A stretch of DNA of 64,000 bases from an uncultured Candidatus Peribacteria bacterium (GTDB taxonomy: Bacteria; Patescibacteriota; Gracilibacteria; UBA1369; LOWO2-01-FULL-3). Under the pieces are notes generated by a model. It saw only the letters and a program-made list of their open reading frames with translations. It searched no databases and was not told the DNA's origin. The stretch is from assembly GCA_964356355.1 (NCBI GenBank), contig CAYHGX010000001.1, positions 68,299 through 132,298 of the forward strand, given 5' to 3'. Positions within the stretch are counted from its first letter, which is position 1. Each line of letters begins with the position of its first letter. Positions 33,821 through 59,027 of the stretch are shown piece after piece. The position numbers were made by a program, and so were the translations under genes.

Positions 33821-33880
33821 GCACCTTGCTATGGCGCTCGGTGGGTTAAGTTGTTAGCACTTCGCTTCGCTCGCGCTTGG
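33821..33880 (-). repeat. Copy b of the same element, in the glmS-pyk intergenic region
   Basis: The plus-strand sequence is gcaccttgctatggcgctcggtgggttaagTTGTTAGCACTTCGCTtcgctcgcgcttgg. It shares a 16-nt identical core with copy a and aligns with copy c across the whole element. Confidence 0.6.
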
Positions 33881-42515: not shown

Positions 42516-43142
42516 GTGCCTCTTTTAATAAACTATATGCAGGAAGGTCCCCAATTGCCAGCATGGCTAGTAGCTGAACGCGGAGAGACGATGCAGTTGA
42601 TTGATAAGATATTACAGAGGCCTGACTTAGCTCAATGTGTTGTTCAGGCTGAAAATCCATATCCTAATGAGCAGATTCGATATGAATACAGGAATGGAAA
42701 TAGAGTTTATACGATTATAGTTTTTGGAGAATCGAATTATTCGAGAGAAAAGCCTGCTTTTGCACCTCACTATATGTTTGAAGCTAGGATTGATAACGGT
42801 ACTCCTTATAATCCAAGTGATGGAGATGTGAAGGCTGATGTTGATTTTGCAGGTCGTCGTAGGTTTGAGTTTTATTATCCTCCTAAACCTGGGGAAAGGT
42901 TTTCATATAGGGATGATCGACAAGATAATACTCATGGAAATAGTCCTGAGATTTTGTATTGGCAAGAAGAGCTAATGGGAAAGACGGGAAGTCAGGCTCT
43001 TATGGAGATATTGAAGCAATTTGAATCGGCTCCAGCTTCTGAGGAGGTTCCGCGTTCAGCTATGGTTAAAATACAGGCTTTTGTTGATGTGTTACGAAGC
43101 GCTGTTGGGTATAGACCGCGATATGATAAGCCGAAGAGATAG
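42516..43142 (+). CDS. Hypothetical protein
   Basis: The ~208-aa ORF has ordinary composition and no recognisable domain. Alternative starts are at 42537 and 42591. Confidence 0.45.
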   Translation: MPLLINYMQEGPQLPAWLVAERGETMQLIDKILQRPDLAQCVVQAENPYPNEQIRYEYRNGNRVYTIIVFGESNYSREKPAFAPHYMFEARIDNGTPYNPSDGDVKADVDFAGRRRFEFYYPPKPGERFSYRDDRQDNTHGNSPEILYWQEELMGKTGSQALMEILKQFESAPASEEVPRSAMVKIQAFVDVLRSAVGYRPRYDKPKR

Positions 43143-43526: not shown

Positions 43527-43593
43527 TGCCTCGCTACGGCGCAGGCGCGCTCGGCGGGTTTATTTGTTAGCACTTTGCTGCGCTTCGCGCTTA
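43527..43593 (-). repeat. Copy c of the same element, upstream of rpmE
   Basis: The plus-strand sequence is ttgcctcgctacggcgcaggcgcgctcggcgggtttatTTGTTAGCACTTTGCTgcgcttcgcgcttag. It overlaps the last codons of the surface-protein gene and ends ~20 nt upstream of the rpmE start. Confidence 0.6.
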
Positions 43594-44804
43594 GTGCTGT
43601 GAATATACTTAAAGTATACTAGTAATGCAAGTAAAATTATGATTAGAGAGAGTATCAGCTCTTTGTAAAGTCCAAGGTTTAAAACTGAAACTTGAAAGTT
43701 TTTGGTCACTTCTTCTCCATTGGAATCTTTTATTGTGAGTTTAACCTTGTGTTCTCCTGTTTTTTTGAATGTGTAATTTAGGGCGTTGCCTTCTCTTTGA
43801 ATTTTGTCGTCAATTGTCCAGCTGTAGCTAACTATTTGCCCATCTTCATCAATGGAAGGAGTGGCATCAAAGGTGTAATTTTCAAATACTCCAATTTTAT
43901 CGGTTTCTTTTTTCAGGATGATTTTTGGTGCTTTGTTTATGGGGAAGGGATCTTCTTTGTCTGGAAGGCTGTCATTGTCGTCGTCGATGTCGAGGTTGTT
44001 GCCGATGGAATCATTGTCGGTATCAAGGGTTTCATTTGGATCAAGAGGGAAGGCGTCGTTTTTGTCGTTGGTACCATCTCCATCAGTATCGGCTTTAAGG
44101 GGATCAGTTCCAGAATTTGTTTCATCAATATCGCTAACTTCGTCATTGTCATCATCGGTGTCTGCTATGTTGCCGATGCCATCTTTGTCGGTATCGAGAG
44201 TTTCATTTGCATCTAGAGGCATGTCGTCGAATTTGTCTGGTACGCCGTCTCCATCGTCATCTAGGTCGGCGTTGTCTCCTTTTCCGTCTCCGTCTGTGTC
44301 ATATTGCTCTTTGCTGTTGAGAGGAAAGGCGTCTTTGGTGTCTTCAACTCCATCGCCGTCGTCATCTAGGTCGGCACTATTGGCAATTCCATCATGATCG
44401 GTGTCTTGGATAACGAAGATTTCGCTAACGATCCAATTGTTGGAGGGGTCGTCGATTTCTGGTTGCCATGGAAAAATTTTGACTGCAATTTTGTGGTTTC
44501 CGGCGGTTGGTGTCCAGTCTATAAAGGTGCCATCTGTGTTGCCTTTGTAGATGGAGACTGCTTGGTCACCGCCAATCTGCTTACTGTTGTCGTAAAAACG
44601 AACAACGCCGAGGAGGTCCTTGGTGCTGTTGTTTTTTGTGCTTGAATAGATTCTGATTGGTGAGCCTTCTAGGAACTTATCTGTTGAGAAGGTGATTTTC
44701 TCGCTGTTGATGGAGATGTCTCCGCTAAATGCTGCATAGGCTACTTGTGTAAAAGCGAGTAGAAATGCAGGAATAAGACCTAGTTTTCGTATTTTTATTT
44801 TCAT
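43560..44804 (-). CDS. Secreted, C-terminally anchored surface protein: CARDB-like domain, thrombospondin type-3 Ca-binding repeats, PKD domain
   Basis: The signal peptide reads ..AFTQVAYA. About 8 DxDxDGxxDxxD-type repeats follow ([22 protein letters not shown] and similar). A PKD-like segment ([18 protein letters not shown]) and a C-terminal TM helix complete the protein. Confidence 0.8.
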
Positions 44805-47443
44805 TATGAACTGATTAGTTCTTGTTGGTTTTCTTCAACTTCTGGTACTACATAGCCATCTTCGCCTTCTTCGATAACGTCGATGACGGAGATTCCGGCT
44901 ACTTTATCGGCAGGCTTTAGGCGCATTAGGTAAACACCTTGAGTGGCGCGGCCTTGAGAAGGGATATTCTTTACGTGTAGGCGAATTACTTGTCCTGATT
45001 TTGAGATCATGATGAGATCGGCGTTGGTGTTGGTTTCAATGATTTTGGCGCCAATGATTTTGCCGGTTTTTGTGGTGATGTTTGCGGTCTTAACTCCACT
45101 ACCTCCACGTGATTGGAAGCGGTAATCGGTAACTTTGGTCATCTTTCCGAGACCGTTTTCCATGATTACGAGCAGTTCTGCGGTTTCTGGTGCTTTGATG
45201 GCATCCATTTCCACTACTTCATCGCTGCCTTTGAGGCGGATTCCACGAACTCCAATTGAAGGACGGCCCATTGGGCGGCAATCTTCTTCGTTGAAGCGGA
45301 TGCATTTGCCTTCGCGACTTACTAGGATGATTTCGTCTTTATCTCCAACTTCACGGATCCATTCAAGTGAATCTTCGGGGCGAAGCTTGATGGCGATCAG
45401 TCCGGTTTTTCTTACATTTCCGAAGTCTTCAACTGGGGTTTTTTTGATTGTACCCATCTTTGTGGCCATGAATAGATATTTGCCACTGAATTTTTCGCCT
45501 GTAGAAAGGATGGCAGTAACGTGTTCGTCATCTTGTAGTTGTAGTAGATTTACGATGGCCTGGCCTTTTGCTGTACGGGAGGCCATTGGGATTTCGTATA
45601 CTGGAAGTTTGAAGACGCGTCCTTTATTAGTGAAGTAGAGGAGTTCATCGTGATTTTGAGTTTTCTTGATGAGTTTGATTTCGTCCTCTTCTTTGGTGGT
45701 GCCGCCGATTATGCCTTTTCCTCCGCGGTGTTGGCTGCGGAAGGTGTTGGTTGGAATGCGCTTGATGTAGTTTTCACGGCTGAGCATTACGATTACCGGT
45801 TCGTTTGGAATTGTGTCTTTTTGGGAAATGCTGTTGATAGCATGTGGAACGATTTCGGTTCTGCGCGGATCGGCATATTTTTCTTTCATTTCAGCCATTT
45901 CCTCCTGCATAATTTTGAGAACTTTGTTGACGTCGGCCAGAATTCCTTCTAGGTGCATAATAAGGGCGATTTTTTCTGCTAGTTCATCTTCGATTTTTTT
46001 GCGCTCAAGACCTGCGAGAGTTTGTAGACGCATGTCGAGAATGGCTTTACCTTGAAGCTCTGAGAGTTTGAATTTTTTCATCAGTTGCTCGAGGGCTTCT
46101 TCTTTGTCTGCTGATTTGCGAATAACGGCGATCACTTCATCGATATGATCGAGGGCGATTTTCAGTCCTTCGAGGATGTGGGCCCTGGCTTTAGCCATTT
46201 TTAGCTCGTATTCGGTGCGTCGTGTGATAACTACTTTTCGGTGAGTGATGAAGTGCTCAAGTACCTGTTTAAGGTCTAGTAGATGCGGTTGAATTTCGTC
46301 TACGAGTGCGATCATGTTCATGTTGAACGATGATTGAAGCTGTGTGAATTTGAAAAGTTGGTTGAGGATTTTTTTAGGATAACTATCTTTTTTGAGCTCG
46401 ATCATAATTCTCATACCGTCTTTGTTGGACTCGTCTCTGATATCGGTGATGCCAACTACCTTTTTATCGCGAACTAGTTCGGCAATTTTGGTGATGAGGT
46501 TGGCTTTGTTTACTTGGTAGGGGATTTCGCTAACGATGATTTCGAATTTGCCGTTTTTTCTTTCTCTGATGTCGGTGCGGCCACGAACTACCATGCCGCC
46601 GCGGCCTGTAGTGTAGGCGGTGCGGACGTCATCGATGTTGTAGAGGATGCCTCCAGTTGGGAAATCGGGACCTTTAATGAATTCCATGAGTTCTGGAATT
46701 GTGGCTTCGGGATTTTTTGAGAGGTGAATTAGGCCGTCGATAACCTCTCCAAGATTGTGTGGAGGGATGTTTGTGGCCATACCAACGGCAATACCGGTAG
46801 AACCGTTGAGGAGTAGTTGTGGGAGCTTGGTAGGAAGAACGGTAGGTTCTAGGTGACGGCCATCGTAGTTTTCTCTCCAGCTAACTGTTTCTTTTTCAAT
46901 ATCTGTGAGCATTTCGTCCGTGATTTTTTCCATTTTGGCCTCGGTATAACGCATGGCCGCTGCGCTGTCACCGTCGATGGAACCAAAGTTTCCTTGTCCT
47001 CTTACTAGGGTGTAACGCATGGCGAAATCTTGGGCCATACGAACCATTGAGTCATAAACTGCGGAATCGCCGTGGGGATGATATTTACCCAACACTTCAC
47101 CGACAACGGTGGCGGATTTTCGGAAGGAGGCTGAGGAGCGAAGACCCATTTCATTCATGGCGTGCAGGATTCTGCGGTGAACTGGTTTCATGCCGTCTCT
47201 GACGTCTGGAAGGGCTCTGGACACGATTACGCTCATGGCATATTCGAGGTAGCTGGTTTCCATTTCGTCGGAGATGTTACGTGGGCGGAGGCCTTCGTGA
47301 TTGGTGAAAAGATCGCCTTCGAGGGCGGTTTCAGTGGAGGAGTTTACGGATTCGGAGTTGTCCTCTGATTCTTGGTTTTCTAGATTTTCGTCGTTTTGAT
47401 TTTCCTCTTCTTGATCTTCTGGATTGGTATTTTCGTCTGACAC
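44804..47443 (-). CDS. gyrA: DNA gyrase subunit A with ~45-aa acidic N-terminal extension
   Basis: Motifs are [26 protein letters not shown], the active-site region AAMRYTE and the QRRGG-like GyrA box (SQHRGGKG). C-terminal beta-pinwheel repeats are present. Confidence 0.95.
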
Positions 47444-47515: not shown

Positions 47516-47543
47516 TTGACTTTGTGCGCTAATATGGTAAAGT
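47516..47543 (+). promoter_or_regulatory. Putative sigma-70-type promoter of cassette 1
   Basis: TTGACT-N16-TAAAGT is preceded by TGg (extended -10). The same architecture recurs at 48294, and similar architectures recur at 49373 and 59036. Confidence 0.45.
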
Positions 47544-47874
47544 GTGCGTCTGTGATTTTTGAAAAGTGGGCGTTCAAGATTTTAGGGATGAAGGTTTTCG
47601 TGGAAATTTTTTCCCTGAGGGTTTGACTTCGGGTTCGTTTCTTGGCTTGTAGAAGAGCTGTCTGCTGATTTCAGCGGATTGGTGCATTCTCGCTGGATAA
47701 CGATTTTGACAAGAAGGTAATAAGAAGAATTTTTGGGTTTGGTCTGTTTTGCTGGGGGCTAAGAGATTGTTATGGAAATCGTGGAGACGATTTTGTAGCA
47801 GTTTGCTAGACCCCGGCAAATCAACAGCCGGCGGCATGAGCGGGTTAGGAGCCCGCGTTTCGAAGGAGTTTGCC
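47544..47874 (+). repeat. Leader module copy 1 (AT-rich, ~330 nt), paralogous to 48322-48661
   Basis: It is colinear with copy 2 through conserved blocks: TTTAGGGATGAAG, TTTTCCCTG.GGTTTGACT, GTA.AAGAGCT, CGATTTTGACAA.AAGGT.ATA and TTAGACCCCGGCAA.T..ACAGCCGG.GGC. Both copies have a GCGGG..CCCGC hairpin just before the Shine-Dalgarno sequence. Confidence 0.7.
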
Positions 47875-48096
47875 ATGTATGGTAATCGTCTTCCGCTCGC
47901 TGTGCGTGTGATCGATGGGGACCGGGTGGTCCCCACCGATATAGTCGAGGTGCTCGGCCCGGTCCTGGGTGCCGTGGTGGGGGTGGCCATCCGGCCCACG
48001 GAGCGCGGCGAGCAGTCCCAAAAGTGGGTCTGCGGTTACGATCCCACCAAGGCCTGCTCGGTGGGTCCGAGCTGCCGCGCCGCGCGCCGCGGCTGA
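47875..48096 (+). CDS. Small high-GC ORF P1 (73 aa, 3 Cys near C-terminus), unknown function
   Basis: AAGGAG lies 7 nt upstream of the ATG. Third-codon-position G+C is 45/50 by hand count over 47944-48093, against 30/50 at second positions, which is the periodicity expected of a high-GC coding sequence. The peptide is MYGNRLPLAVRVIDGDRVVPTDIVEVLGPVLGAVVGVAIRPTERGEQSQKWVCGYDPTKACSVGPSCRAARRG. I recognise no homologue. Confidence 0.45.
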   Translation: MYGNRLPLAVRVIDGDRVVPTDIVEVLGPVLGAVVGVAIRPTERGEQSQKWVCGYDPTKACSVGPSCRAARRG

Positions 48097-48190
48097 TTTC
48101 CTAGGATCGCTACGATGCCAGGGCCACTCTTCGGCCCATTCGCGGCGCTGTTAACGTTCCTAGGCCAATCCGCACCACCCCGGCCTCTGC

Positions 48191-48256
48191 AGACCAGCCC
48201 CCGGCCGCACTCTCACGAGCGCGCGCCGGGGGCTGGTCTTGCACTTTTTTCTTTTT
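48191..48256 (+). terminator. Rho-independent terminator of cassette 1
   Basis: The 15-bp perfect stem is AGACCAGCCCCCGGC/GCCGGGGGCTGGTCT (48191-48205 and 48225-48239). It is followed by tgcacTTTTTTcTTTTT. Confidence 0.7.
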
Positions 48257-48293
48257 ACCTTCTTGTGTCTTCTAATTTAGTTGGCTTTCACCA

Positions 48294-48321
48294 TTGACTT
48301 TTTCAGTGAATATGCTACAGT
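48294..48321 (+). promoter_or_regulatory. Putative sigma-70-type promoter of cassette 2
   Basis: TTGACT-N16-TACAGT is preceded by TGc (extended -10). It is positionally equivalent to the cassette 1 promoter. Confidence 0.45.
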
Positions 48322-48661
48322 CTTCAGCTTTAGTTATTTGAAATGCAGGAAAATGTTTAGGGATGAAGTTCTTAACGCTTGAGGGCGTAGATAAGAGTTT
48401 TTCCCTGGAGGTTTGACTCTAGGATCGCATCTGGGTTTGTAAAAGAGCTATTGGCTGCTTTGGCGGCTGATCGGTGACTTTTCGCCCCCTTCGCGATTTT
48501 GACAACAAGGTGATAGAAAATTTTTAAATTGGTCTTGGCTGATTGCAGGGGTTTACGAGTTTCTTAGATGATCGTTTTATGGGCGATTTATAAGAGACTG
48601 TTAGACCCCGGCAATTGACAGCCGGAGGCGAGTGCGGGCGTAGGCCCGCGGAGATGTGCAG
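48322..48661 (+). repeat. Leader module copy 2, paralogous to 47544-47874
   Basis: It has the same conserved blocks and hairpins as copy 1, in the same order and with a similar total length. Confidence 0.7.
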
Positions 48662-48850
48662 ATGAAGGTTGCTCTTGTGGACTTCCGTGGTCAGGTGGTC
48701 GCGGTCGTGGAGTTCGTGATGATTCCGATGGGGCTGAGCGAGCCTCTGCGTGAGCGAGAAGGGCGCGATGTGCGGCCCGAGCCGCTGTGCGTGAATCCTC
48801 GTTGCCCGATCCATGGCGCCCGCAGTCAGCGGCCCGACAGCCACAACTGA
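48662..48850 (+). CDS. Small high-GC ORF P2 (62 aa, CxxxxC near C-terminus), unknown function
   Basis: GGAG lies 8 nt upstream of ATG 48662, and an in-frame GTG at 48656 is also possible. GC3 is high by eye. The peptide is MKVALVDFRGQVVAVVEFVMIPMGLSEPLREREGRDVRPEPLCVNPRCPIHGARSQRPDSHN. Confidence 0.45.
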   Translation: MKVALVDFRGQVVAVVEFVMIPMGLSEPLREREGRDVRPEPLCVNPRCPIHGARSQRPDSHN

Positions 48851-48855
48851 TCGTC

Positions 48856-48912
48856 TCGCGCCCGCGGCTTCACAGCCGCGGGCGCGATGAAGTGATCTTC
48901 TTCTTTTCTACT
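48856..48912 (+). terminator. GC-rich hairpin with interrupted T-rich tail after P2 (possibly leaky terminator)
   Basis: The 14-bp stem is TCGCGCCCGCGGCT/AGCCGCGGGCGCGA with a 4-nt loop (48856-48887). The tail is tgaagtgatcTTcTTcTTTTcT. Confidence 0.5.
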
Positions 48913-48972: not shown

Positions 48973-49230
48973 ATGGAGTGTGACATGGATTTCCGGAACT
49001 TGGAGCTGATGTTTGGAGCGATGAATGGCTTCGGGCGCGGCATGCTTGCCCATGCGGCGGAGCTCCGTATGGCCCGGGAGCGCGCGCTGGCGCGCGTCCC
49101 CGGCGCGGGCTTCGGGCCGAGTCTGCCGAGCGCGCGCCCGGCCGCCGACCGTCCGGTGCCGCCCTGCAACGCGTGGCAGCTGACCGCCCAGTCCTGGGCC
49201 GGTCAGCGCCACAGCATGAGCTGCCTCTGA
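48973..49230 (+). CDS. Small high-GC ORF P3 (85 aa, 2 Cys in the C-terminal third plus 1 near the N-terminus), unknown function
   Basis: It has a high-GC3 reading frame but no clear Shine-Dalgarno sequence or promoter of its own. It may be read through from cassette 2. An alternative ATG lies at 48985. Confidence 0.35.
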   Translation: MECDMDFRNLELMFGAMNGFGRGMLAHAAELRMARERALARVPGAGFGPSLPSARPAADRPVPPCNAWQLTAQSWAGQRHSMSCL

Positions 49231-49250
49231 GGCGGCTCACCCCGGCCAAA

Positions 49251-49320
49251 GGGGCGGCGGAATGAGGTTCGGGTTTCAAAGCCCCCTCGTCTCCGCCGCC
49301 CCTTAGGCATTTTCTTTTTC
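49251..49320 (+). terminator. Rho-independent terminator after P3
   Basis: The 11-bp outer stem is GGGGCGGCGGA/TCCGCCGCCCC (49251-49261 and 49292-49302) with further inner pairing. It is followed by ttaggcaTTTTcTTTTTc. Confidence 0.6.
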
Positions 49321-49437: not shown

Positions 49438-51699
49438 ATGGCTAATGTATTTACAGACGATAAGGCGAAGAGTGATTCTGTGGCCGCTGGGGCTCCGAGT
49501 TGGCTTAAAGATGCCGATGTGATGGTGCCTGGAGCGGGAATTGCTGATGTGGCGCCTGCGGTTGCTCCTTCAAAGGACTATGAGGGTTCTTTGCCTCAGT
49601 TTCACGATGAAAAACCTACCGCAACTCAGTTGGGAGTTGATCCTGCCTCTTGGGTAGTGATTGAAAGTGCTGATAAACAGGCGGCGGAGAAAATGATGGC
49701 TGCGGGTCTTGATCCTAAAACTGGAAGGTTAATGGCGGCTTCGCAGGCTGTTGTTGAGGGAGATGATACTGGAGAAAAAAAGCTAGTAGTTGAGGGAAAC
49801 AAGGATAAAGATGGAGTACTTGGTACTTTGAAAAAATTATTTAGTTTTGGTGTGAAAAGGCCTCAGGTAGAGGGAGTGGCTGGAGCTGCGGTTCCGGTGG
49901 CTACTAAAATTGATCCTTCTGGGAAATTGACGGTTGATGAGAAGAAGAAATTTATGGAGGCTGAGAAAATCTATCAGGAGGGCTTGGCGGCGATTAAAGA
50001 TTTGATTGCGCCGGCTTCCATGGAGATTCAGTATGATAAATTGCGAGTAGATGGCATGTATTGCCAATCATTTTATGTATTTGCTTATCCTCGTTATTTG
50101 GATGCTAACTGGCTCTCTCCGGTGATCAATTTCGACGTAACAATGGATATAAGCCAATTTATCTATCCGATCAACTCGGGAGATATTATGAAGATTCTGC
50201 GCAAGAAAGTTGCACAGATGCAGTCGAGTATGCGTATGAATGCGGAAAAAGGGCATGTGCGTGATCCAGCTATTGAGACGGCTTTGGAAGATGCTGAGTC
50301 TTTGCGAACAGATATTCAGCGCGGACAGGAGAAGTTTTTCCAATTTGCACTCTATTTTACGGTTTACGCTACCAGTGAAAAGAAGCTGGAGAAGGTGGCG
50401 AAGCAGCTTGAGAGCCTTTTGGCAGGTAAATTGGTGCTTACAAAACGTGCGCAGCTACAGGCTGAACATGGTTTTAATTCTTCGATTCCGATTTGTTTGG
50501 ATCAACTTTATACGATTCGAAATATGAATACTGGGCCGCTTTCAAGTACATTTCCGTTTACCTCTTCAGATCTTACCTCTGATAAGGGTATTTTGTATGG
50601 AATTAACCGTCACAATGACAGCTTGATTATATTTGATCGGTTTGCCCTGGAGAATGCTAATAGTGTGGTGTTTGCCAAGTCCGGTGCGGGTAAGTCTTAT
50701 GCCGTGAAGTTGGAGATTTTGCGTCAGATGATGATGGGTACCGACGTGATCGTGATCGATCCGGAAAATGAGTATGAGGCGCTGGCCAATACGGTTGGTG
50801 GCTCTTATTTAAGGCTTAGTTTGAACAGTGATCGTAGAATTAATCCTTTTGATTTGCCGCGGCCGATTGAGGGTGATGATAACAAGCCTGGCGATTTATT
50901 GCGCTCTGGAATTATTAATTTGCATGGTTTGATGAACTTGATGCTGGGTAAGCTTACACCTGAAGAGGAGAGCATCCTGGATCGGGCTTTGATTGATGTG
51001 TATGCGCTAAAAGGCATTACAATGGAGACCGTGGATCCTTCGGTTTTTGAGCCCCCGACGATGGAGGATTTATACCAGATCTTGAGCTCCTTGGAGGGGG
51101 CGACTGGGCTAACTCAAAGGCTTTCTAAATATACTACAGGTTCTTATTCCGGAATTTTCAATAAGCCTACTAATGTGGATCTCTCAACCGGCATGATGGT
51201 GTTCTGTATTCGTGACCTTGAGGACGCACTTCGGCCGATTGCGATGTATATTATTTTGAACTATATCTGGAATAGCGTTCGCAGCGAGCTCAAGAAGAGA
51301 ATTCTGGTTATAGATGAGGCCTGGACGATGATGCAGCATGAGGATAGTGCAAAATTTTTGAACGGACTAGTGAAGAGAGCAAGAAAATATTACCTGGGAG
51401 TGTCAACAATTACTCAGGACGTGGAAGATTTCTTAAAGAGTGAGTATGGTAAGCCAATTATTACCAACTCCTCGATGCAGTTGCTTTTGAAACAGTCGCC
51501 TTCAGCTGTGGAGATGCTGGGGCATATTTTCAATCTTACCGATGGGGAGAAGTATGTGCTCCTTAATAGTGGTGTGGGGCAGGGCCTATTCTTTGCCGGC
51601 CAGAAGCACGTGGCAGTGCAGGTGATTGCCTCATTTACTGAGAATAAAATAGTGACTACGAACCCTGAAGAGGTGATTAAGGCCAGGGAGCAGGCTTAA
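49438..51699 (+). CDS. virB4: VirB4/TrbE/CagE-family type IV secretion-like ATPase
   Basis: Walker A is FAKSGAGKSY and Walker B is ILVIDEAW. The conserved VirB4 context includes FPF...L, NPFD and YYLGVSTITQ. The ~190-aa N-terminal region is Ala/Gly/Val/Lys-rich and has no recognisable domain. Confidence 0.85.
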   Translation: MANVFTDDKAKSDSVAAGAPSWLKDADVMVPGAGIADVAPAVAPSKDYEGSLPQFHDEKPTATQLGVDPASWVVIESADKQAAEKMMAAGLDPKTGRLMAASQAVVEGDDTGEKKLVVEGNKDKDGVLGTLKKLFSFGVKRPQVEGVAGAAVPVATKIDPSGKLTVDEKKKFMEAEKIYQEGLAAIKDLIAPASMEIQYDKLRVDGMYCQSFYVFAYPRYLDANWLSPVINFDVTMDISQFIYPINSGDIMKILRKKVAQMQSSMRMNAEKGHVRDPAIETALEDAESLRTDIQRGQEKFFQFALYFTVYATSEKKLEKVAKQLESLLAGKLVLTKRAQLQAEHGFNSSIPICLDQLYTIRNMNTGPLSSTFPFTSSDLTSDKGILYGINRHNDSLIIFDRFALENANSVVFAKSGAGKSYAVKLEILRQMMMGTDVIVIDPENEYEALANTVGGSYLRLSLNSDRRINPFDLPRPIEGDDNKPGDLLRSGIINLHGLMNLMLGKLTPEEESILDRALIDVYALKGITMETVDPSVFEPPTMEDLYQILSSLEGATGLTQRLSKYTTGSYSGIFNKPTNVDLSTGMMVFCIRDLEDALRPIAMYIILNYIWNSVRSELKKRILVIDEAWTMMQHEDSAKFLNGLVKRARKYYLGVSTITQDVEDFLKSEYGKPIITNSSMQLLLKQSPSAVEMLGHIFNLTDGEKYVLLNSGVGQGLFFAGQKHVAVQVIASFTENKIVTTNPEEVIKAREQA

Positions 51700-51787: not shown

Positions 51788-52012
51788 ATGAATACAAAAG
51801 TACACAGTTATGCAAATGTGCATCCAATGGTGGTGTTTTGGATCGGCTTGCTAACAGGTGCTATCATCGTTGGTTTATCGTTCTTTTATAGAACACTAGT
51901 ACCGGCTGATTACAATTCTTCACTGTTTAGTTATCCAACTTACAGTACAAACTTGAAGACAAGTCTTAGTCCTACTTATAGTCCAATTTCAATTACTCAG
52001 CCAATGGGCTAA
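51788..52012 (+). CDS. Small single-pass membrane protein, unknown function
   Basis: The 74-aa ORF has one hydrophobic helix (VVFWIGLLTGAIIVGLSFFY) and a Ser/Thr/Tyr/Pro-rich tail. A consensus-like promoter lies upstream. Confidence 0.45.
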   Translation: MNTKVHSYANVHPMVVFWIGLLTGAIIVGLSFFYRTLVPADYNSSLFSYPTYSTNLKTSLSPTYSPISITQPMG

Positions 52013-52037: not shown

Positions 52038-52070
52038 AAGAGTGAGTAGTTAAGGCTATTCACTCTTTTT
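52038..52070. terminator. Hairpin between convergent genes (possible bidirectional terminator)
   Basis: The 8-bp stem is AAGAGTGA/TCACTCTT with a 14-nt loop, followed by TTT. It overlaps the stop codon of the minus-strand 1490-aa gene. Confidence 0.45.
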
Positions 52071-55000
52071 ATGCTGGGAAGTGACGTGAGCTGATTGTAG
52101 CTGTCAACATTGCTTCGAGTTCATCCGGGTCTGCCAATTTTTTTAATTTAGCCTTGAGTATATTTCTCTTAACTGTTTTTCCGTTTTCTGTGGTTTCTGC
52201 TTCTATTAGTCTATCAAATTCTGTGGCTATTTCTGCCCGTTTTTCCCTGAATAATTCAATTAATGAGCGGAATCCTTCGAATTTTCTTTCAACTTGGCCG
52301 GAGTTGTCTACATGTCTAAAGTTTTCATCTTGAATTCTGGTGATTCCACGTGTAATTGATATGTTTGTTAGGGCGGGGAAGCTTGTCAGATAGTATCCAG
52401 GTTTTTCTGAGTCTTTTAATTCGGGGATTAGAGTACCTTGGAGATCCTGATCTGTAATATTTAGTGTTTCGATGAATTCCAAGATCATGGCAATGCTTGG
52501 TAGGATATAGTAGCTGAATTCACCTGAAGGGTCTTTGGTAAAGTATCCTTCCATCTTAGGGGTGTTGAAATAGGCGAAATCTTCCAGGGCATCTTTTAGG
52601 TATGGTATCATTTCATCTTTGATACGCTTAAATTCTTTAGCTCTATTTGGATTTGCGCTGGCTGTAATTAGCTCCTGATTGTAGGTTTGCACAAGTAGGC
52701 TTACTGCTCTAATTCTTCCAAAATGTAAAAGTAGATGGTATTTATCGTTTGGGTCTACGTTTTTAATAAGTGGAAAGCCTTCTTCATTGCAGGTAGTGAT
52801 TGCTTGTGAAATTTTTTGTCTATTGAAAGCATTTGTAGGTAGTGGTTCTGTTTCTGCGGTATTTGTTTCGTCGGGATATTTTGTTTTGCTGGTTGCCATC
52901 ATTAAAAGTGCTAACATTTTTTGGTAGGCAAAGCGTGCAGCTTGGCGCGATAGTCCAATCTGATTGCTAATTCTCCAGTTTTCGCCGTAGCCTATTGCAG
53001 CTCTTTCATATTCTCCGCAATAGTCGTAGGTTTGGGCCAATAATTCCAGGAATGCTACGTCATCGATGGGGTCGAAAATTAGTGGATTGGTTTCTCGGGC
53101 TTGTCTTATTGCATCTAATTCGTGACGTAAATTAATGAGAATTTTAGTTTCTTTTTGATTGAATAATGAGGGATCTACGGCGCCATCATCATCTATACTT
53201 TGGCGGGTTTTTGGTTTACGAACAGTGCATTCGAATAGATATCTTTGATATAGCAATTTAATTTTGGCGTAGGTTTTTGGATCTGATTTGGCTATTTCCT
53301 GTATTTCAGGTTTTTCTAGCGAATATTTTTGAAGCCATCCTTCAAGGGCGGCTACGATATTTGATATGTTACTTACTTCATCTCCGTGATCGCAGGCTCG
53401 AGCCTCATGTTGCATTTCAATTGTGAGTAGGTCTCCAGGGGTGTAATTTCCACGACTATCTTGGATTTTTTTGAAATATGAGTTCATCTTGACTCTTTTT
53501 TCTGCGTTTCGAATTTGAGATTCTTCCATTGAGGCCATGCGGAAGCCCATTTTGTAGGCTTCTAAAAGTTTTGGGTTTTCTGGATCTTGGGTATTGGTGC
53601 AGATTGCTTCCAATGTGTCGATTGCAGCGTGGACTCTTGCGAATTGACCGAGATTGGCTCCGCTTTCGATGTAGGTGAGGAGTGCGGATTTGATCAATAT
53701 AATCATTTCTTCGGTGGTGGACTGTTCTTCTTCTGATTTTCCTGAAAGTACGATGGGGTGCTCTTGTAGTTCTTGGATTAATTTTGCAGCTGCGGTTTTG
53801 GCTTTTGGATCTAGATTGCAAAGAATGGCTGAGGCGTGTGCTAATCCTTTGGCATATTGTCTGCCTTCGTGGTCTTTTTCTAGTACGGTAGTTGCTTTTC
53901 TTGTGTAGGCAGCCCAAACTTTGCGGTGAGCTTTGTTTCTGAGGGTTGAGGTTTCGGTTGCGGCTTGGAGCCAGCTGAATTTTACTTCATCTGGAACATT
54001 TGAGTCGGCCGATATTCTGCCATAGTGTTTGAAAACTAGTTTCTGTTTTTCTTGAGGAGGGATTGAGTCCTTGATGGCTTCGCCAATTGTTTCATTTGAA
54101 AGTTCATAGGCTGTGGTGATGCCATTGTTATCTACGATTTTAGTGAGGTAGTCTTGTTTTATTAGTAGATCTATTATTGCAATGGCCTCTCCGCCGATTT
54201 TTCCTGTTTCTTCGGCAGTGATCTCGAGTAATCTTCTTACGGTAAATGGGGTGCCGGTCATGGCAACTAATCGAAGAATAGAGAGGATTTTTGGTTCAAG
54301 TTTTATGATTCTGTTTCTTTCATGTTGGATTAGATCTTCTTGGTTGTTGATTTTTTGAAGTTCCTCGAGTGCTGCGTTGGTAAGTCCAATTTCATTTTCT
54401 CCGTAGGTGAGAAACTTATCTGGATTTCTTAAGAGAATGTTTATTAAGCTGGTGAATCCCCATGGAGTTTGGATTTTATTTGCTAGCATTAGGTGCCAAT
54501 CGTTGGTAAAGGTTTTTCTTTCGCCGGTTGTGCTATTTAGACACTTTTCTTCTGGAAGTGAGTAGAAAACGTAGTCTGCGGCAGTTTGTGGATCTTGTAA
54601 ATTGAGTTTTGGCGTGCCGGTTTTTTCATCTTGGAGCCAAATTGTTTTGACAGCTTTGGGACCAAAGGAAGATCCAAGATTGGCTTCCATGGCGGTTTGT
54701 TTTGTAGATTTAAATCTATCTTCTGGCCTCATGGTGGCAATGATGCGGCATTGGGTTTCTCTTAGTACTGTTTCCATGATTTTCATGATGTGTTCATCGG
54801 AGTGGGCGTCGATGTGGTGCATATCATCTAGGACGATGGGGAAAGAACCAAAAATTTGTTCAAATGCACTGATGGCACCGATGATCTTTGATACTAATTC
54901 ATGAGGTTTTGTTTGTGCTAAGTGTAGTCTTTCTCCGGGAGAAAGGCTGCATATTTGCTGTAGCGGAGCGAGCAGTGCTTTATATTGATCTGCTTTTGCA

Positions 55001-56541
55001 AGGTCCTTTATTTTACTTTTTGCAAAGGCATCGAGCTGTTCAATAATATTGATCAGGGCCATGCCGGGGAGCTTCTCGCAGGCTGGGTCGATGCTAAGGA
55101 TCATCGCGCCTGGGTTCTCTTTCATTAGTTCATCCAAAATACGTGATTTTCCGATACCGGCTTTACCTTTTATTATGGTTAGTTTCGTTCTGCTTTTTGG
55201 GCCAGTTCCTTCTCTTAATTCTTCTAAAACATCCTGTTGTCCGATGAGTTTTCTAGGGCCTCCACCTACTCTAAGAGTGGCTTCTCTGACAACGTCTAGA
55301 ATGCGGTAGTATTTTGTGCCGGGTATTTTTTCTACTTTTAATTGTGAAGTAGTGTTTTCGCGGCTCCTTAGTTGTTTTTCATAGGTTTCTTCATCGATAA
55401 TATAGTCGGCCTTGTTTTCTCCTTCACCTAGCTTTGACCATTGGATAAGCTCTTGTGTGGAGAGGTAGTCGTTCATTTTCAATCCTTCTTCGGATTGAGA
55501 AAGCGTTCCTTTTCCAAAGCGGAGATGGGCTTTCCCTTGAGTTTTTTTGCGTATACCTAGTCCAAAATTTTCCAAAAAACCGCTGGCGCGTTCTTGTAGT
55601 GCGATGATTACAATGTTGTCCATGCTATCTTTTTTGACAATAAAGCCATCAGAGCGGGAAATTGCCGCGATATCATTTAGGATGTGGACGATATGGGGGA
55701 AGCCAAAATTGCTACCTTGAAGGATTATATGTGGATTGATCACTAAGTAACTGACGCTGCCAGTGGCATTGGTTTCTTTTTCGTTGGGCTTTTTTTCTTC
55801 TTCTTTTAGTGAGTTGATTGTTCTTGTTGATGTGTTTAGGTCTGGTCCAAATTTTTTGGCAGTGGTTGGAAGGAATCCATCTAATGAATAACTTGTGACT
55901 GGGTCATTGTCTCTGGTGCCAATTGTTAAAGATTGTCTGTGGGCAGCCACTTTTCCAGGTTTTGGTACGTCTAGTGTCTCTCTGTAAAGTGTTGGGTTGC
56001 AAGCAATAAATGTGGAGCCGATTCTTAATACTAAGTGCCCTTTGGGATCAATAGTAGTAGTTACTTTTGATTCAATATTAAGATCGGTTAGAGCCTGGTA
56101 AACAAGTAATGCATTTATGTGGCTTGGGATGAGTTCTTGAATAGTGACGATGTCGTCCTGGTCGTTCATTATGGCGCCGTGATCCGTGTTTAGGCTTAAT
56201 CCAAGCCTGTTCAGGGCGGTTTGAACTACGGGAAGGTTTTCTCTTTTGAAACTGATGCGCATTATTTGATATTGCTCTGGAGTAATACTTAATGAATGAG
56301 GATCATGAAGGTGGCAGATAGCGAGAGGTTGAAGGTGTGGAGAGAGTTTTTGCACCTCTTCAGCTAAAATCATCGATCCCTCTGTTAATTGAGTGGAAAT
56401 TTCAGAGACTATTGTTGTTTTAAAAGGATCAACATCTGGTTTGCTGTAGAGATCTGGTCCCTTTGTATTGATAGGGGCGAACTCAAGATCTCTTCTTGTT
56501 GGTATGGCAATTGGGCTAATTCTTGAATCTGGGCTGGCCAT
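52069..56541 (-). CDS. Large STAND/AAA_16-like P-loop NTPase with unassigned ~440-aa N-terminal region and long helical-repeat C-terminus
   Basis: The protein is 1490 aa. Walker A is IIKGKAGIGKSRILDEL and Walker B-like is FPIVLDDMHHID. About 800 aa of helix-rich, TPR-like sequence follows. I recognise no motif in the N-terminal 440 aa. Confidence 0.75.
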   Translation of the reverse strand: MASPDSRISPIAIPTRRDLEFAPINTKGPDLYSKPDVDPFKTTIVSEISTQLTEGSMILAEEVQKLSPHLQPLAICHLHDPHSLSITPEQYQIMRISFKRENLPVVQTALNRLGLSLNTDHGAIMNDQDDIVTIQELIPSHINALLVYQALTDLNIESKVTTTIDPKGHLVLRIGSTFIACNPTLYRETLDVPKPGKVAAHRQSLTIGTRDNDPVTSYSLDGFLPTTAKKFGPDLNTSTRTINSLKEEEKKPNEKETNATGSVSYLVINPHIILQGSNFGFPHIVHILNDIAAISRSDGFIVKKDSMDNIVIIALQERASGFLENFGLGIRKKTQGKAHLRFGKGTLSQSEEGLKMNDYLSTQELIQWSKLGEGENKADYIIDEETYEKQLRSRENTTSQLKVEKIPGTKYYRILDVVREATLRVGGGPRKLIGQQDVLEELREGTGPKSRTKLTIIKGKAGIGKSRILDELMKENPGAMILSIDPACEKLPGMALINIIEQLDAFAKSKIKDLAKADQYKALLAPLQQICSLSPGERLHLAQTKPHELVSKIIGAISAFEQIFGSFPIVLDDMHHIDAHSDEHIMKIMETVLRETQCRIIATMRPEDRFKSTKQTAMEANLGSSFGPKAVKTIWLQDEKTGTPKLNLQDPQTAADYVFYSLPEEKCLNSTTGERKTFTNDWHLMLANKIQTPWGFTSLINILLRNPDKFLTYGENEIGLTNAALEELQKINNQEDLIQHERNRIIKLEPKILSILRLVAMTGTPFTVRRLLEITAEETGKIGGEAIAIIDLLIKQDYLTKIVDNNGITTAYELSNETIGEAIKDSIPPQEKQKLVFKHYGRISADSNVPDEVKFSWLQAATETSTLRNKAHRKVWAAYTRKATTVLEKDHEGRQYAKGLAHASAILCNLDPKAKTAAAKLIQELQEHPIVLSGKSEEEQSTTEEMIILIKSALLTYIESGANLGQFARVHAAIDTLEAICTNTQDPENPKLLEAYKMGFRMASMEESQIRNAEKRVKMNSYFKKIQDSRGNYTPGDLLTIEMQHEARACDHGDEVSNISNIVAALEGWLQKYSLEKPEIQEIAKSDPKTYAKIKLLYQRYLFECTVRKPKTRQSIDDDGAVDPSLFNQKETKILINLRHELDAIRQARETNPLIFDPIDDVAFLELLAQTYDYCGEYERAAIGYGENWRISNQIGLSRQAARFAYQKMLALLMMATSKTKYPDETNTAETEPLPTNAFNRQKISQAITTCNEEGFPLIKNVDPNDKYHLLLHFGRIRAVSLLVQTYNQELITASANPNRAKEFKRIKDEMIPYLKDALEDFAYFNTPKMEGYFTKDPSGEFSYYILPSIAMILEFIETLNITDQDLQGTLIPELKDSEKPGYYLTSFPALTNISITRGITRIQDENFRHVDNSGQVERKFEGFRSLIELFREKRAEIATEFDRLIEAETTENGKTVKRNILKAKLKKLADPDELEAMLTATISSRHFPA

Positions 56542-56651: not shown

Positions 56652-59027
56652 ATGAGTGATCTTGGTAGGCAAAATTTGGCGGCGCGGATCTTTAAAGGGG
56701 TGATTTTCGCCTTGATTTCTTTTGGAATGGTGGGTGGAAATTTTTTGATAGAGGGAAAGGCTTATCAGGAGGCGCCAAAAACTGAGGGAAAGCTGGTTGC
56801 TTTTGATTATGGGAAGGATAATTTAATTGGAGAAGATGGAATTATCAGATTTGATACTGAGGTGCCAAAGCCGGATATGCAGGTGGTAAAGGCTGAAAAT
56901 GGATATGTTTTTAATTTGAAAAATGGTCATTTTTGGGGAAATTTTAGGCTGAGCGATGATGGTGTTGCAATTGTCTCCGACAGAGTGGTTGTTGTACCTG
57001 ATCATGCTGTTTTTGATGCTTCTTTCGTGAGTGGCAAATTGGAGCTGGCTGTGTATTCCGGCGATGTTTATTTGGGATTTTTGCCTGAGGGGGTTGATGT
57101 GAAAGAGCAGGTCGATGCTTATAGTGGGGTGTTTATGAATCGTTTATTGGTGGCTCAGGGGAACAAAGTTACAGTAACGATGTCTAAGGTTACTGATCAA
57201 ATTAGGCCGCTTTTGTATTCTAAGTTGGTGAAGGAGTTTAAATATATTCAGATTTCTGCTGAGCAGCGTCAAGGGCCTTGGGTGTTGAAGAATCTGGCTT
57301 TTGATACACAGAATCGAGAAAATCGAAAGCATCAATTTGAGTCAGAGGTGATTTTGCGTGGTTCGAGTGCCAGTGAGGGGTTTGTGGCGAGTATTTTGCA
57401 ATGGACACAGGCTAATCTTACTTTTATTCCCGATAAGCGTCAGAAAATTCAGTTGAGAAGGCTCTTTGCTTATTTGGAGGATGCCATCTATTATGCGAAG
57501 TCGGGAGATTTGGAGCAAACAAAGCAATATCTTAATGATTTTGACGTTTATATTACTGATGTGGAGTTTACCTCTGGTGAGGAAAATGGGTTTCATCATT
57601 ATTTTGAGGAATATGTGAAGGGTTTGAATGTTTTTGAGCCTGGTGATGCCTATTATGAGGTTGAGAAATTTTTATTAAATAAACAGTTTTTTTCTAAGGA
57701 TCAGCAGGGGCTGGTGGTTGCGGCTTTTTGGCAGGATGTGTATGAGGCGATTGGGAAAAATGAGGTAGCTGCTCGTGAGTCGTTGGACAATTATTACAAC
57801 TATTTGGATAAGTATTTAGTTATTTTAGAAGGTGGCGATCAGGCCTATTATCAAAATTATTTAGCTTATCAGAATCAGCTTTTTGATAATTTGTTGTTAA
57901 AATATCCGGTCTTTTATCAAGATTCGTATTTTGCGATTAAAGATGCTTTAGAAATGCGTTATTTGGCTTTGTTCCAGGGCCATGACAAGGAGGAGATGAG
58001 TCAGGATTTTATCAGTGAAAAGATTGATTTCCTTAGAAGGGTGAAGAAATTTTTCTTTGATGGGTCAATTCAGATCGTTGATGCGAAAAAGGTATTTTCA
58101 AGGCTGATTGCTGAGATTGACGCCTTGATGCCTAAAGATAAGGGTGAGGTGGCAGTAATTGCGCTTTTTGAGTCTCGACTTAAGGATATTGCTGATTTCT
58201 GGGGGTATTTAAGTAGTCCTCAGTACCAAACAAAGGCGAGTGGAGTGACAGAGGAGGATAGATATAATACCTATTTAAAGGAAAAGGATAAGATTTGGAG
58301 TTTTGTGAATATTCGGGAGGATGTGTTGGGTGAAAAAATTCAGAAATCAATGACAGTTGCGGATGTGAAGGACGAGGTGATAAAGCAATTGATGATTTCC
58401 CAGGGGGTTTCGAGCGTTGAGGTTGGGGAGATTAAGGACGCTGGAGATAGGTATATTGATGTAAACTTAGTGATTAGTGGTTATCCGGTGAAGGCGGTGT
58501 ATGATCGCGTGACTACTTTAGTGAAGGAGGTAACGGCTTATGATAAGGATATTTCTAAGGGTAGTGTGAAGGTGGAGGCCTTGTTGGCTGTGTTGCAGGA
58601 TAAATTTGCGGATTTGGCTAAAGATAGTTTGGCAGCCAAGGATGAAGGGGTTTCAATTGAGAGTACAGCGCAGAGGTATGCGCGGGTGTATATTGCGAAG
58701 GTGCTTGCTGATGAGGGATTTGTGGTTGAAATGAAAAATGTGAGTTTGGTGGATGAGGAAAAGGCCATTTATCGGGTACAGGAAATTACTTTATTGGCTA
58801 ATGAGGCGATGGTGGTAACCTTTGATTTGGATATGAAGGGCGAGGTTGTGACTAATCTTTTTGTGATGAATAAGGGCGAGCCGCAGCTAATTGATGGTGC
58901 TTTTACGTTGGCCGAGCTAAAGGCTTTTATTCAGGCTGATGGCAAGATTGATAAGGGAGAGCCGTTGGTAGATGGTGGTGCGGCGAATCCAAGTGGGCCT
59001 AGTGCTGGTGGAAAGGTGTCGAGGTAA
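56652..59027 (+). CDS. Membrane-anchored hypothetical protein (791 aa)
   Basis: After an N-terminal TM helix (VIFALISFGMVGGNFLI) comes a beta-rich segment faintly FecR-like (GYVFNLKNGHFWGNF...VVVVPDHAVFDASF..GKLELAVYSGDVYLG). A long helical region and a Gly/Ala/Pro tail complete the protein. Confidence 0.6.
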   Translation: MSDLGRQNLAARIFKGVIFALISFGMVGGNFLIEGKAYQEAPKTEGKLVAFDYGKDNLIGEDGIIRFDTEVPKPDMQVVKAENGYVFNLKNGHFWGNFRLSDDGVAIVSDRVVVVPDHAVFDASFVSGKLELAVYSGDVYLGFLPEGVDVKEQVDAYSGVFMNRLLVAQGNKVTVTMSKVTDQIRPLLYSKLVKEFKYIQISAEQRQGPWVLKNLAFDTQNRENRKHQFESEVILRGSSASEGFVASILQWTQANLTFIPDKRQKIQLRRLFAYLEDAIYYAKSGDLEQTKQYLNDFDVYITDVEFTSGEENGFHHYFEEYVKGLNVFEPGDAYYEVEKFLLNKQFFSKDQQGLVVAAFWQDVYEAIGKNEVAARESLDNYYNYLDKYLVILEGGDQAYYQNYLAYQNQLFDNLLLKYPVFYQDSYFAIKDALEMRYLALFQGHDKEEMSQDFISEKIDFLRRVKKFFFDGSIQIVDAKKVFSRLIAEIDALMPKDKGEVAVIALFESRLKDIADFWGYLSSPQYQTKASGVTEEDRYNTYLKEKDKIWSFVNIREDVLGEKIQKSMTVADVKDEVIKQLMISQGVSSVEVGEIKDAGDRYIDVNLVISGYPVKAVYDRVTTLVKEVTAYDKDISKGSVKVEALLAVLQDKFADLAKDSLAAKDEGVSIESTAQRYARVYIAKVLADEGFVVEMKNVSLVDEEKAIYRVQEITLLANEAMVVTFDLDMKGEVVTNLFVMNKGEPQLIDGAFTLAELKAFIQADGKIDKGEPLVDGGAANPSGPSAGGKVSR

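Follow-up and report, generated by a model that had tools for sequence, protein, structure and literature searches.

In a 64,000-nucleotide (64-kb) stretch of DNA from a Peribacteria bacterium, referred to below as the window, two tandem modules occupy the 2.0-kb gap between the divergent genes gyrA and virB4, the latter encoding a VirB4-like ATPase. Each consists of a promoter, a leader of about 330 nucleotides (nt) and one or two tiny, GC-rich open reading frames (ORFs, here called payloads). The view that the leaders constitute a new, structurally conserved leader RNA family, present here as a tandem duplicate and physically linked to small genes that evolve fast, is well supported. We give slightly better than an even chance to the fuller reading that these segments are tandem paralogues of a lineage-specific family of structured 5′-leader RNAs that acts in cis on the small ORFs downstream.

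A first-pass annotation of this DNA, made from its letters and a list of ORFs, had described two colinear, tandem paralogous modules, and this description was borne out. In a local alignment of positions 47516-47857 with 48294-48650, 251 of 327 aligned columns were identical (76.8%, or 67.5% with gaps), and the alignment score was 118, as compared with 21.9 +/- 2.3 (maximum 31) for 200 shuffles. The homology spans the region from the -35 hexamer to a GCGGG..CCCGC hairpin just 5′ of the Shine-Dalgarno (SD) sequence; past the start codons nothing aligns, and the payload ORFs, which had been called non-homologous, share no detectable similarity (BLASTP E = 1.1). The sequence blocks listed in the annotation were all found where it had placed them, its two promoters proved to be the two best plus-strand matches in a promoter scan, and the leader lengths of ~325 and 334 nt are those it had claimed. 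The modules are made up as follows (aa, amino acids; GC1/2/3, G+C content by codon position; terminators and the GC hairpin after ORF2 read from the sequence):

47516..47543, plus strand: promoter 1, TTGACT-N16-TAAAGT with an extended -10 TG, from the promoter scan; module homology starts here
47550..47874, plus strand: leader 1, a 5′ untranslated region of ~325 nt, folding at -119.8 kcal/mol (z = -5.2)
47875..48096, plus strand: ORF1, 73 aa, 68% GC, orphan (GC1/2/3 = 0.74/0.53/0.79)
48191..48252, plus strand: terminator 1, a 15-bp GC stem followed by a T-run
48294..48321, plus strand: promoter 2, TTGACT-N16-TACAGT with an extended -10 TG, from the promoter scan and the alignment
48328..48661, plus strand: leader 2, a 5′ untranslated region of ~334 nt, folding at -130.8 kcal/mol (z = -5.4)
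48662..48850, plus strand: ORF2, 62 aa, GC-rich, orphan (GC1/2/3 = 0.76/0.44/0.74)
48857..48886, plus strand: GC hairpin after ORF2, with no adjacent T-run
48973..49230, plus strand: ORF3, 85 aa, ~71% GC (windows to 0.79; GC1/2/3 = 0.69/0.58/0.87)
49250..49320, plus strand: terminator 3, a long GC stem followed by a T-run

Both leaders fold far more stably than their shuffles (z about -5.3) and have a native composition (~42% GC, G+T-rich). The promoter scan detected no promoter-like site between either leader and its ORF, or ahead of ORF3, and the sole terminator-like match between leader and ORF was a hairpin of copy 1 (hairpin H, described below), whose T-run is missing in copy 2 and in the orthologues. 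Unit 1 runs from promoter 1 through the 325-nt leader and ORF1 to the strong terminator at 48191-48252, and unit 2 from promoter 2 through the 334-nt leader, ORF2, the GC hairpin and ORF3 to the strong terminator at 49250-49320. ORF3, which lies outside the region described by the first-pass annotation, is probably part of this second unit and co-transcribed with ORF2, while the hairpin between the two may act as a weak terminator or a read-through point.

The leader is a lineage-specific family, rather than a private duplication. Its conserved 5′ part served to build a hidden Markov model and, after that, a covariance model (R1), which has 182 positions and 44 pairs. On the window, R1 matched copy 1 with 119.8 bits (E = 6.6e-28) and copy 2 with 121.3 bits (E = 2.8e-28), scores that carry the caveat that both copies were included in the seed alignment; orthologues reached 147-179 bits. 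Strong matches of 89-179 bits were found in nine further contigs, four of them from metagenome-assembled genomes (MAGs) in GTDB (L029, L010, L043 and L007), one from a JGI metagenome (L089) and four from ENA/Logan (L090-L093); L090 and L091 encode the same small protein (P0005), as do L092 and L093 (P0008). L024 gave a weak, partial match of 25 bits. The matches sit between gyrA (minus strand) and virB4 (plus strand) in every contig with flanks, and a small GC-rich ORF and a strong terminator follow the leader in 8/8 strong-match contigs with downstream sequence. The orthologous promoters read TTGACT-N16/17-TATGAT or TACTAT. Leader lengths in the family range from 330 to 460 nt, and its distribution is limited to one Peribacteria subclade and one genomic slot. 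The earlier suggestion of an RNA family was upheld, in that the leaders form a real, cis-linked family with further copies in other species and in the same slot.

Neither 80 related loci (1.28 Mb) nor the remainder of the window gave any other credible R1 match. A pattern scan of metagenome contigs yielded one true new member (L089) together with two chance matches inside a carboxyltransferase-like gene, the same scan of viral contigs gave zero matches, and the 2-kb locus had no blastn match in phage or plasmid collections. When the window and orthologous loci were scanned with the 4227 models of Rfam 15, at gathering and at permissive thresholds (to E = 10), there was no family match, which agrees with the earlier suggestion that the leader falls outside known RNA classes. 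The output for the leader held only sub-threshold, microRNA-like hairpin matches; no T-box model matched it in these scans, and the genes downstream are orphan mini-ORFs. Our search of the literature on structured RNAs of the Candidate Phyla Radiation (CPR) or Peregrinibacteria found nothing relevant.

Within the leader, the following elements were distinguished (the SD-proximal features and hairpin H of leader 2 being read from the sequence):

47569..47735, plus strand: conserved 5′ domain of leader 1 (P1, hairpin H, P2 closing stem and P3), from R1 and covariation
48344..48528, plus strand: conserved 5′ domain of leader 2, from R1
47614..47633, plus strand: hairpin H of leader 1, CCUGAGG-GUUUGA-CUUCGGG, with loop motif UUUGAC, from covariation
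48404..48423, plus strand: hairpin H of leader 2
47704..47717, plus strand: near-invariant motif UUUUGACAAGAAGG with the second UUUGAC, in all members, predicted to be mostly single-stranded
48497..48510, plus strand: near-invariant UUUUGACAACAAGG of leader 2, in all members, apparently unpaired
47737..47835, plus strand: P4 of leader 1, a long imperfect hairpin (-44.8 kcal/mol, z = -6.4)
48532..48629, plus strand: P4 of leader 2, a long hairpin (-48.6 kcal/mol, z = -8.3)
47840..47856, plus strand: SD-proximal hairpin of leader 1, GCGGGU-UAGGA-GCCCGC
47863..47868, plus strand: SD sequence of leader 1, AAGGAG
48634..48649, plus strand: SD-proximal hairpin of leader 2, GCGGGC-GUAG-GCCCGC

Structural conservation was analysed on a model-based alignment of 12 sequences, in which 92.9% of cells were paired under the first (alifold) model. 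This revealed 21 pairs changed on both sides, as compared with 8.1 +/- 2.0 in shuffles (0/500) and 3-9 in controls with slid partners, so that the covariation for which the first-pass annotation had proposed a test is present. A revised model, comprised of the P1 inner stem, hairpin H, the 5-bp closing stem P2 and hairpin P3, paired 92.7% of cells; 21 of its 35 pairs had double changes, and its covariation score was 0.334 versus 0.180. Over both models, shuffles averaged 8.0-8.1 such pairs. P3 has double changes in 13 of its 16 pairs, and P2 occurs as CCUGU/ACAGG, CCUGC/GCAGG, CCUAC/GUAGG and AUCGC/GCGAU. Hairpin H (CCUGAG-GUUUGA-CUCRGG) is kept in 11/11 sequences that span the region, with 96.8% of cells paired; the changes that support it are a G.U pair inserted in copy 2, A-U in place of C-G in L024, and U.G to C-G in L090. 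No conserved complement in cis was found for UUUGAC or ACAAGG. An internal promoter at the conserved TTGACA was ruled out, as no member has a -10 element there. None of the outcomes that the annotation had listed as counting against its proposal (a lack of further copies and of covariation, transcription starts downstream of the conserved blocks, a recent segmental duplication, or assignment to a known Rfam family) was encountered.

The 3′ half of the leader is built differently. A 25-35-bp near-perfect hairpin, P4, lies 3′ of the near-invariant UUUUGACAACAAGG in every member, with unrelated sequence and z from -6.4 to -9.2; in L029, L010 and L043, for example, the hairpin at this position is unrelated in sequence and has z = -7 to -9. 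The first-pass annotation had put a CCGGC-loop-GCCGG hairpin here as a main structure. This was not supported: it is predicted to belong to the 3′ strand of the long P4, and in our folding models would be an alternative fold at best. In the same way, the blocks TTAGACCCCGGCAA and ACAGCCGG are predicted to be P4 3′ strands, pairing upstream with GCTGGGGGCTAA / GGTCTG, and the P4 3′ strand of leader 1 contains two of the listed blocks, TAGACCCCGGC and ACAGCCGG. Both SD-proximal hairpins are present as described, including the U.G to C-G difference between the copies, and the GCGGG..CCCGC hairpin beside the SD sequence is real, yet specific to the window lineage.

A conserved mini-ORF upstream of the payload (uORF) had also been proposed. 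Both mini-ORFs exist in the window as written, but they are not conserved in the orthologues: the start codon is ATA in seven of them (L010, L043, L007, L089, L090, L091 and L093), in L029 an ATG at the site opens a longer frame with a different end, and L024 does not include the region. A mini-uORF as a feature of the family, or as a leader-peptide attenuator, was therefore rejected, as the ATG is not kept. What is conserved is the alternative that the annotation had offered for the same region, a stem with a variable loop, corresponding to P1 with its variable tip; L043 and L093 have an extra sub-hairpin at this tip. A different, 17-codon uORF was observed at the 3′ ends of four other leaders (L043 ~8925-8985, L007 ~838-891, L090 and L093). 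It begins at the conserved CCGGUAUG and passes through a hairpin in a reading frame that varies by species, and in 3/4 cases it stops at a UGA within the GUGAGG SD sequence of the main ORF, whereas in L093 it is fused to that ORF in frame. Translational coupling of this uORF to the main ORF is possible.

The payloads differ sharply from their surroundings. In the window, islands of 64-79% GC with sharp edges and about zero skew take in the ORFs together with their 3′ ends, and payload GC3 is 0.60-0.87, as compared with 0.26-0.48 in neighbouring genes, in every species with the module. The window islands lie at positions 47875-48250, 48662-48900 and 48973-49310, and small ORFs of the same high GC3 were seen in L029 (9322-9640), L043 (8999-9520) and L007 (901-1440), and in L089 on the minus strand. 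Judged by codon statistics, the payload ORFs are coding: in nine payload frames read correctly GC2 is lowest in 9/9 and GC3 highest in 8/9, the indels between the L043 and L007 payloads are in frame, SD sequences are well placed, and a DGG.A.P.W motif is kept across orthologue payloads. The orthologous leaders precede a rare family of small proteins of 80-106 aa with this motif, which has five clusters among 5.8 billion proteins, all of them from Peribacteria. No match to ORF1-3 was found in Pfam, NCBIfam or PHROG. A protein search with ORF1 returned only itself; with ORF3, a word-index search gave no match, itself included, and an exhaustive HMMER search gave itself and repeat-protein artefacts only. 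No donor homologue of the payloads was found among 5.8 billion or 1.84 billion proteins. High GC3 is kept in every species despite saturated divergence and with no identifiable donor. ORF1-3 and most orthologue payloads are not hydrophobic, the L010 payload having an N-terminal hydrophobic helix. AlphaFold2 models are of low confidence, both for the DGG family (predicted local distance difference test, pLDDT, 61; a beta-hairpin and a C-terminal helix, with a disordered N-terminus) and for ORF3 (pLDDT 70; a long N-terminal helix, with a poorly defined variable loop).

How the window payloads came to stand behind related leaders bears on the earlier suggestion of a modular platform driving unrelated payloads. 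In one evolutionary reading, which is not a mechanism, the whole module (promoter, leader, ORF and terminator) was duplicated, and the payloads are DGG.A.P.W paralogues that have diverged past recognition under diversifying selection. We regard this as a serious possibility, a shade under an even chance. The small ORFs behind orthologous leaders show no third-position bias: the L043 and L007 payloads differ at 21/18/23 sites by codon position, with 32 non-synonymous versus 14 synonymous codons, and at the sequence level the payload proteins appear to evolve about neutrally. Moreover, P0008 already lacks the DGG motif behind a nearly identical leader, ORF1-3 share a faint RP-(D/E).G....W/C motif and C-terminal Cys pairs, and diversification of ORF3 is ongoing. 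Against this, hhalign and BLASTP comparisons of ORF1-3 with the DGG.A.P.W family and with each other gave nothing significant (E = 0.3-1.1). Since leader and ORF diverge equally in the L043/L007 pair, the window ORFs would be expected still to align had they been duplicated together with leaders that are 68-77% identical, and they do not. For the platform claim the evidence points both ways: there is no significant payload homology, but because the payloads evolve about neutrally and share a weak motif, they may be extremely diverged paralogues.

Under our preferred reading, a cis-acting leader family, each copy would be transcribed from its own sigma-70-type, extended -10 promoter, and each leader would be co-transcribed with one or two tiny, GC3-rich, fast-evolving genes up to a strong intrinsic terminator. 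The leader has three sections, namely the conserved 5′ domain, the P4 hairpin, and lineage-specific GC hairpins abutting the SD sequence, and would influence in cis the translation of the downstream mRNA, its stability, or both. A protein or RNA recognising the two UUUGAC motifs may use the 5′ domain as its binding platform, and P4 may serve as a processing or stability element acted on by a double-strand-specific (RNase III-type) nuclease. As to its origin, the module occupies a variable slot, with gyrA on one side and the VirB4-like gene on the other, and was duplicated in the window lineage.

Several points weigh against this reading. We infer the transcription start, co-transcription and any processing, as well as the RNase III and binding-platform ideas, the latter two from the anatomy of the leader only. 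No conserved terminator/antiterminator pair or SD-sequestering helix was found in the leaders. Helices 1 and 3 of the alifold model are rich in G.U pairs and compete with hairpin H, and the covariation rests on ~5 independent lineages in an alignment fitted to the model. Finally, in the L043 and L007 comparison leader (76% identity) and ORF (75%) diverge equally fast, so constraint on the leader becomes visible only at greater distance.

Four further explanations, a trans-acting RNA, mobile cassettes, a type I toxin-antitoxin-like system and DNA operators, are all less consistent with the data. The conserved RNA might be an independent, trans-acting small or medium RNA of ~200-330 nt, whose UUUGAC motifs pair with distant targets or recruit a protein to them. 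The strongest conservation is indeed in the 5′ domain, far from the SD sequence, no cis complement exists for the two motifs that are near-invariant and apparently unpaired, and the SD-adjacent region is lineage-specific. Nevertheless, we consider it unlikely that the RNA works in this way, given that there is no conserved terminator between leader and ORF (the T-run of copy 1 hairpin H not being kept), that the payload ORFs lack promoters of their own, and that a small ORF invariably follows the leader in the eight contigs noted above.

The diversification of ORF3 can be seen at a hypervariable patch in the loop between two Cys residues, identified by comparing the window with the closely similar contig L003:

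49169..49206, plus strand: hypervariable patch in ORF3

Over 12.5 kb, 12 sites differ between the two, and 11 of these fall within the 38 nt of the patch, where they alter 8/13 residues (N66 to Q78) inside the Cys65-Cys84 loop. The alleles are PPC-NAWQLTAQSWAGQ-RHSMSC in the window and PPC-TEWQVSSQAWGGY-RHSMSC in L003, and both form the same RNA hairpin (-34.2 and -28.9 kcal/mol). L001, a more diverged strain, has the window allele, and the allele therefore does not track the strain tree. A simple inversion of the palindromic patch was rejected, as mismatch positions are asymmetric. An origin by a diversity-generating retroelement (DGR) was likewise set aside, as neither a template repeat nor a reverse transcriptase was found in the window by an N-pattern search, short-word BLAST, a YxDD scan or Pfam. 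Single-nucleotide polymorphisms (SNPs) between L001 and the window clump in short patches (for example at window positions 42626-42751, 50349-50445, 51844-51910 and 58622-58685), mostly synonymous and spaced at multiples of three, which resemble imported recombination tracts. Because L001 carries such patches, recombination together with diversifying selection is the simplest explanation of the ORF3 patch; targeted or hairpin-templated mutagenesis could conceivably also be its source.

A more far-reaching reading would make the leader a dedicated platform for diversifying effector or signal peptides tied to the adjacent VirB4 machinery of an episymbiotic CPR bacterium, with payloads whose high GC3 would be maintained, and whose turnover driven, by a localised process; the compensatory hairpin patch in ORF3, with its 11 substitutions, would be a snapshot of it. 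Candidates for this process are GC-biased gene conversion, targeted hairpin-templated mutagenesis, and repeated capture of sequence coded for a high-GC partner. We think this quite improbable.

The slot itself is variable. The divergent gyrA / virB4 pair is kept in 64/80 Peribacteria loci (L007-L086, with virB4 at about position 10001 in most of them), usually with a spacing of less than 400 nt. Several lineages have unrelated insertions of 1.1-3.4 kb between the two genes, including a probable methyltransferase gene in L011 (judged by sequence motif), a gene in L018 whose product looks by eye like a GGDEF diguanylate cyclase, and further small ORFs elsewhere. One subclade fills this slot with the leader module, and the window lineage does so twice. 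Such a slot lends some credence to the idea that the units of GC-rich ORF and hairpin are mobile or captured cassettes (integron-like, resembling miniature inverted-repeat transposable elements, or recently transferred) placed behind a resident promoter and leader, as do the sharp bounds and near-zero skew of the islands in a strongly skewed genome of 43% GC, and the long imperfect palindrome in which each unit terminates. But no integrase, transposase or reverse transcriptase was identified among the 48 principal window ORFs (at least 120 aa) that were scanned, the units have no other copies in the window, neither protein collection nor phage or plasmid DNA contains a donor homologue, high GC3 in all orthologues at saturated divergence argues against recent transfer, and T-runs follow the palindromes, as they do in ordinary terminators. 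Capture of this kind is very improbable.

That the modules are type I toxin-antitoxin-like (hok/Sok-style) loci, in which a folded mRNA restrains a small toxin with the help of a leader ORF and an antisense RNA, is scarcely plausible: the long folded leaders, tiny ORFs and strong terminators, the mini-ORFs in both window copies and the hydrophobic helix of the L010 payload recall such systems, but neither ORF1-3 nor most orthologues are hydrophobic, the uORF lacks a conserved start, minus-strand promoter-like sites lie at non-equivalent positions in the two copies, and the family holds a single fixed genomic slot instead of scattered copies. It is just as hard to credit that the conservation is at the level of DNA, with TTGAC boxes (in the -35, hairpin H and block C) and inverted repeats as protein sites controlling the divergent gyrA and small-ORF promoters, for although three such boxes lie ~85-105 bp apart in both copies and the site adjoins the gyrA promoter region, compensatory double changes keep the helices in a strand-specific, RNA-like manner that includes G.U pairs, the conserved region is wholly downstream of the predicted start site, and the internal TTGACA has no -10 element in any member.

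On our preferred reading, the leader would belong to a known kind, the structured cis-regulatory 5′ leader, with an unusual class of payload and a narrow phylogenetic range. Like orphan riboswitch candidates and the 'Cis-reg' leaders of Rfam, it is a promoter-proximal, multi-helix RNA found across species with compensatory changes, always directly 5′ of, and apparently co-transcribed with, one kind of gene, and in tandem in one genome. Unlike those leaders, it has no Rfam 15 match and no recognisable expression platform, it precedes orphan mini-proteins rather than metabolic or transport genes, and at 330-460 nt it includes a 25-35-bp perfect-type hairpin and is confined to one subclade and one slot. 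The autoregulatory leaders of E. coli pnp and rnc are RNase III-processed 5′ leaders. The leader described here resembles them in having a long, near-perfect double-stranded hairpin between promoter and SD sequence, whose structure is kept while its sequence drifts, and differs in that there is no sequence homology, that P4 follows a separate conserved domain of 180 nt, and that cleavage of P4 is only proposed. As in hok/Sok mRNAs, a very small ORF is preceded by a long, highly folded mRNA, and the window leaders contain a mini-ORF, but the payloads are no membrane toxins, and neither the uORF nor an antisense promoter is conserved. Integron cassette arrays likewise have tandem, small, compositionally odd ORFs that end in imperfect palindromes in a variable slot, whereas each unit here has its own promoter and 330-nt leader, and the window holds no integrase. 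The 3′ palindromes look more like intrinsic terminators than attC sites, being GC stems with T-runs in which no RYYYAAC/GTTRRRY cores were noticed by reading only, no attC model having been run. As for ORF3, dense, mostly non-synonymous substitutions in a short C-terminal segment on an identical background are reminiscent of DGR variable regions or pherotype-like alleles; unlike in DGRs, neither a reverse transcriptase nor a template repeat occurs within 64 kb, only two alleles are seen, and the patch is 38 nt long and keeps its RNA hairpin.

Next to nothing is known of RNA-based regulation in the small genomes of CPR/Patescibacteria. The leader family provides a concrete candidate for a regulatory RNA in these bacteria, supported by covariation, with no Rfam counterpart and tied to a slot beside a VirB4-type ATPase; were it to be an ordinary stability element, it would still be a new RNA family for annotating Peribacteria genomes. 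The payloads are odd themselves, being orphan mini-proteins with GC-rich synonymous sites in AT-rich genomes across species, one with a hypervariable Cys-bounded loop. Explaining their composition and variability could reveal that uncultivated symbionts have a local process of mutation or recombination at work, or a function in host interaction.

The genes that flank the modules in the window are:

44804..47443, minus strand: gyrA, left flank of the slot (Pfam DNA_topoisoIV and DNA_gyraseA_C)
49438..51699, plus strand: gene for a VirB4-like conjugal-transfer ATPase, right flank of the slot, with its own promoter (NCBIfam NF045971, CD1110 family; Pfam)

The latter gene scored 373.6 bits with NF045971, above the cutoff of 325, and its protein has relatives only in Peribacteria/Peregrinibacteria MAGs, which share 65-82% identity with it over the segment that matches best. 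The DNA of the window is core chromosome from an uncultivated Peribacteria/Peregrinibacteria (CPR) bacterium. When the 48 principal ORFs with 120 aa or more were scanned with Pfam, all were housekeeping genes (including tpiA, dnaG, rpoD, greA, pyrG, priA, secDF, ruvABC, tgt, aroC, gyrA and gyrB) or had no Pfam match, and no reverse transcriptase, recombinase, integrase or transposase was found among them. The locus is carried by six contigs from at least three studies at 99.2-99.9% identity, and an assembly chimera was ruled out, as the locus was assembled independently in those studies, with the same sequence.

Window GC content is ~43%, and GC skew is strongly positive whatever the gene orientation. 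It lies at ~+0.1 to +0.55 in all 500-nt bins (positions 1-64000) except 48001-48500, which falls inside the GC islands, an unusually strong strand-compositional bias. As there is no skew switch, the window holds no replication origin. Between virB4 and gyrB lie two large ORFs, one of 1490 aa (52069-56541, minus strand), whose sole domain is AAA_16, and one of 791 aa (56652-59027, plus strand), for which there was no Pfam match; neither matched NCBIfam or PHROG. A 42-nt repeat, 69-86% identical between copies, occurs on the minus strand at 11373-11414, 33838-33879 and 43551-43592, at or just past the 3′ ends of unrelated genes (lgt, a glmS-like gene and one for a PKD-repeat protein). In two of the three it encodes the final residues (..RSANN* and ..QSANK*), and it may be a shared 3′-end element.

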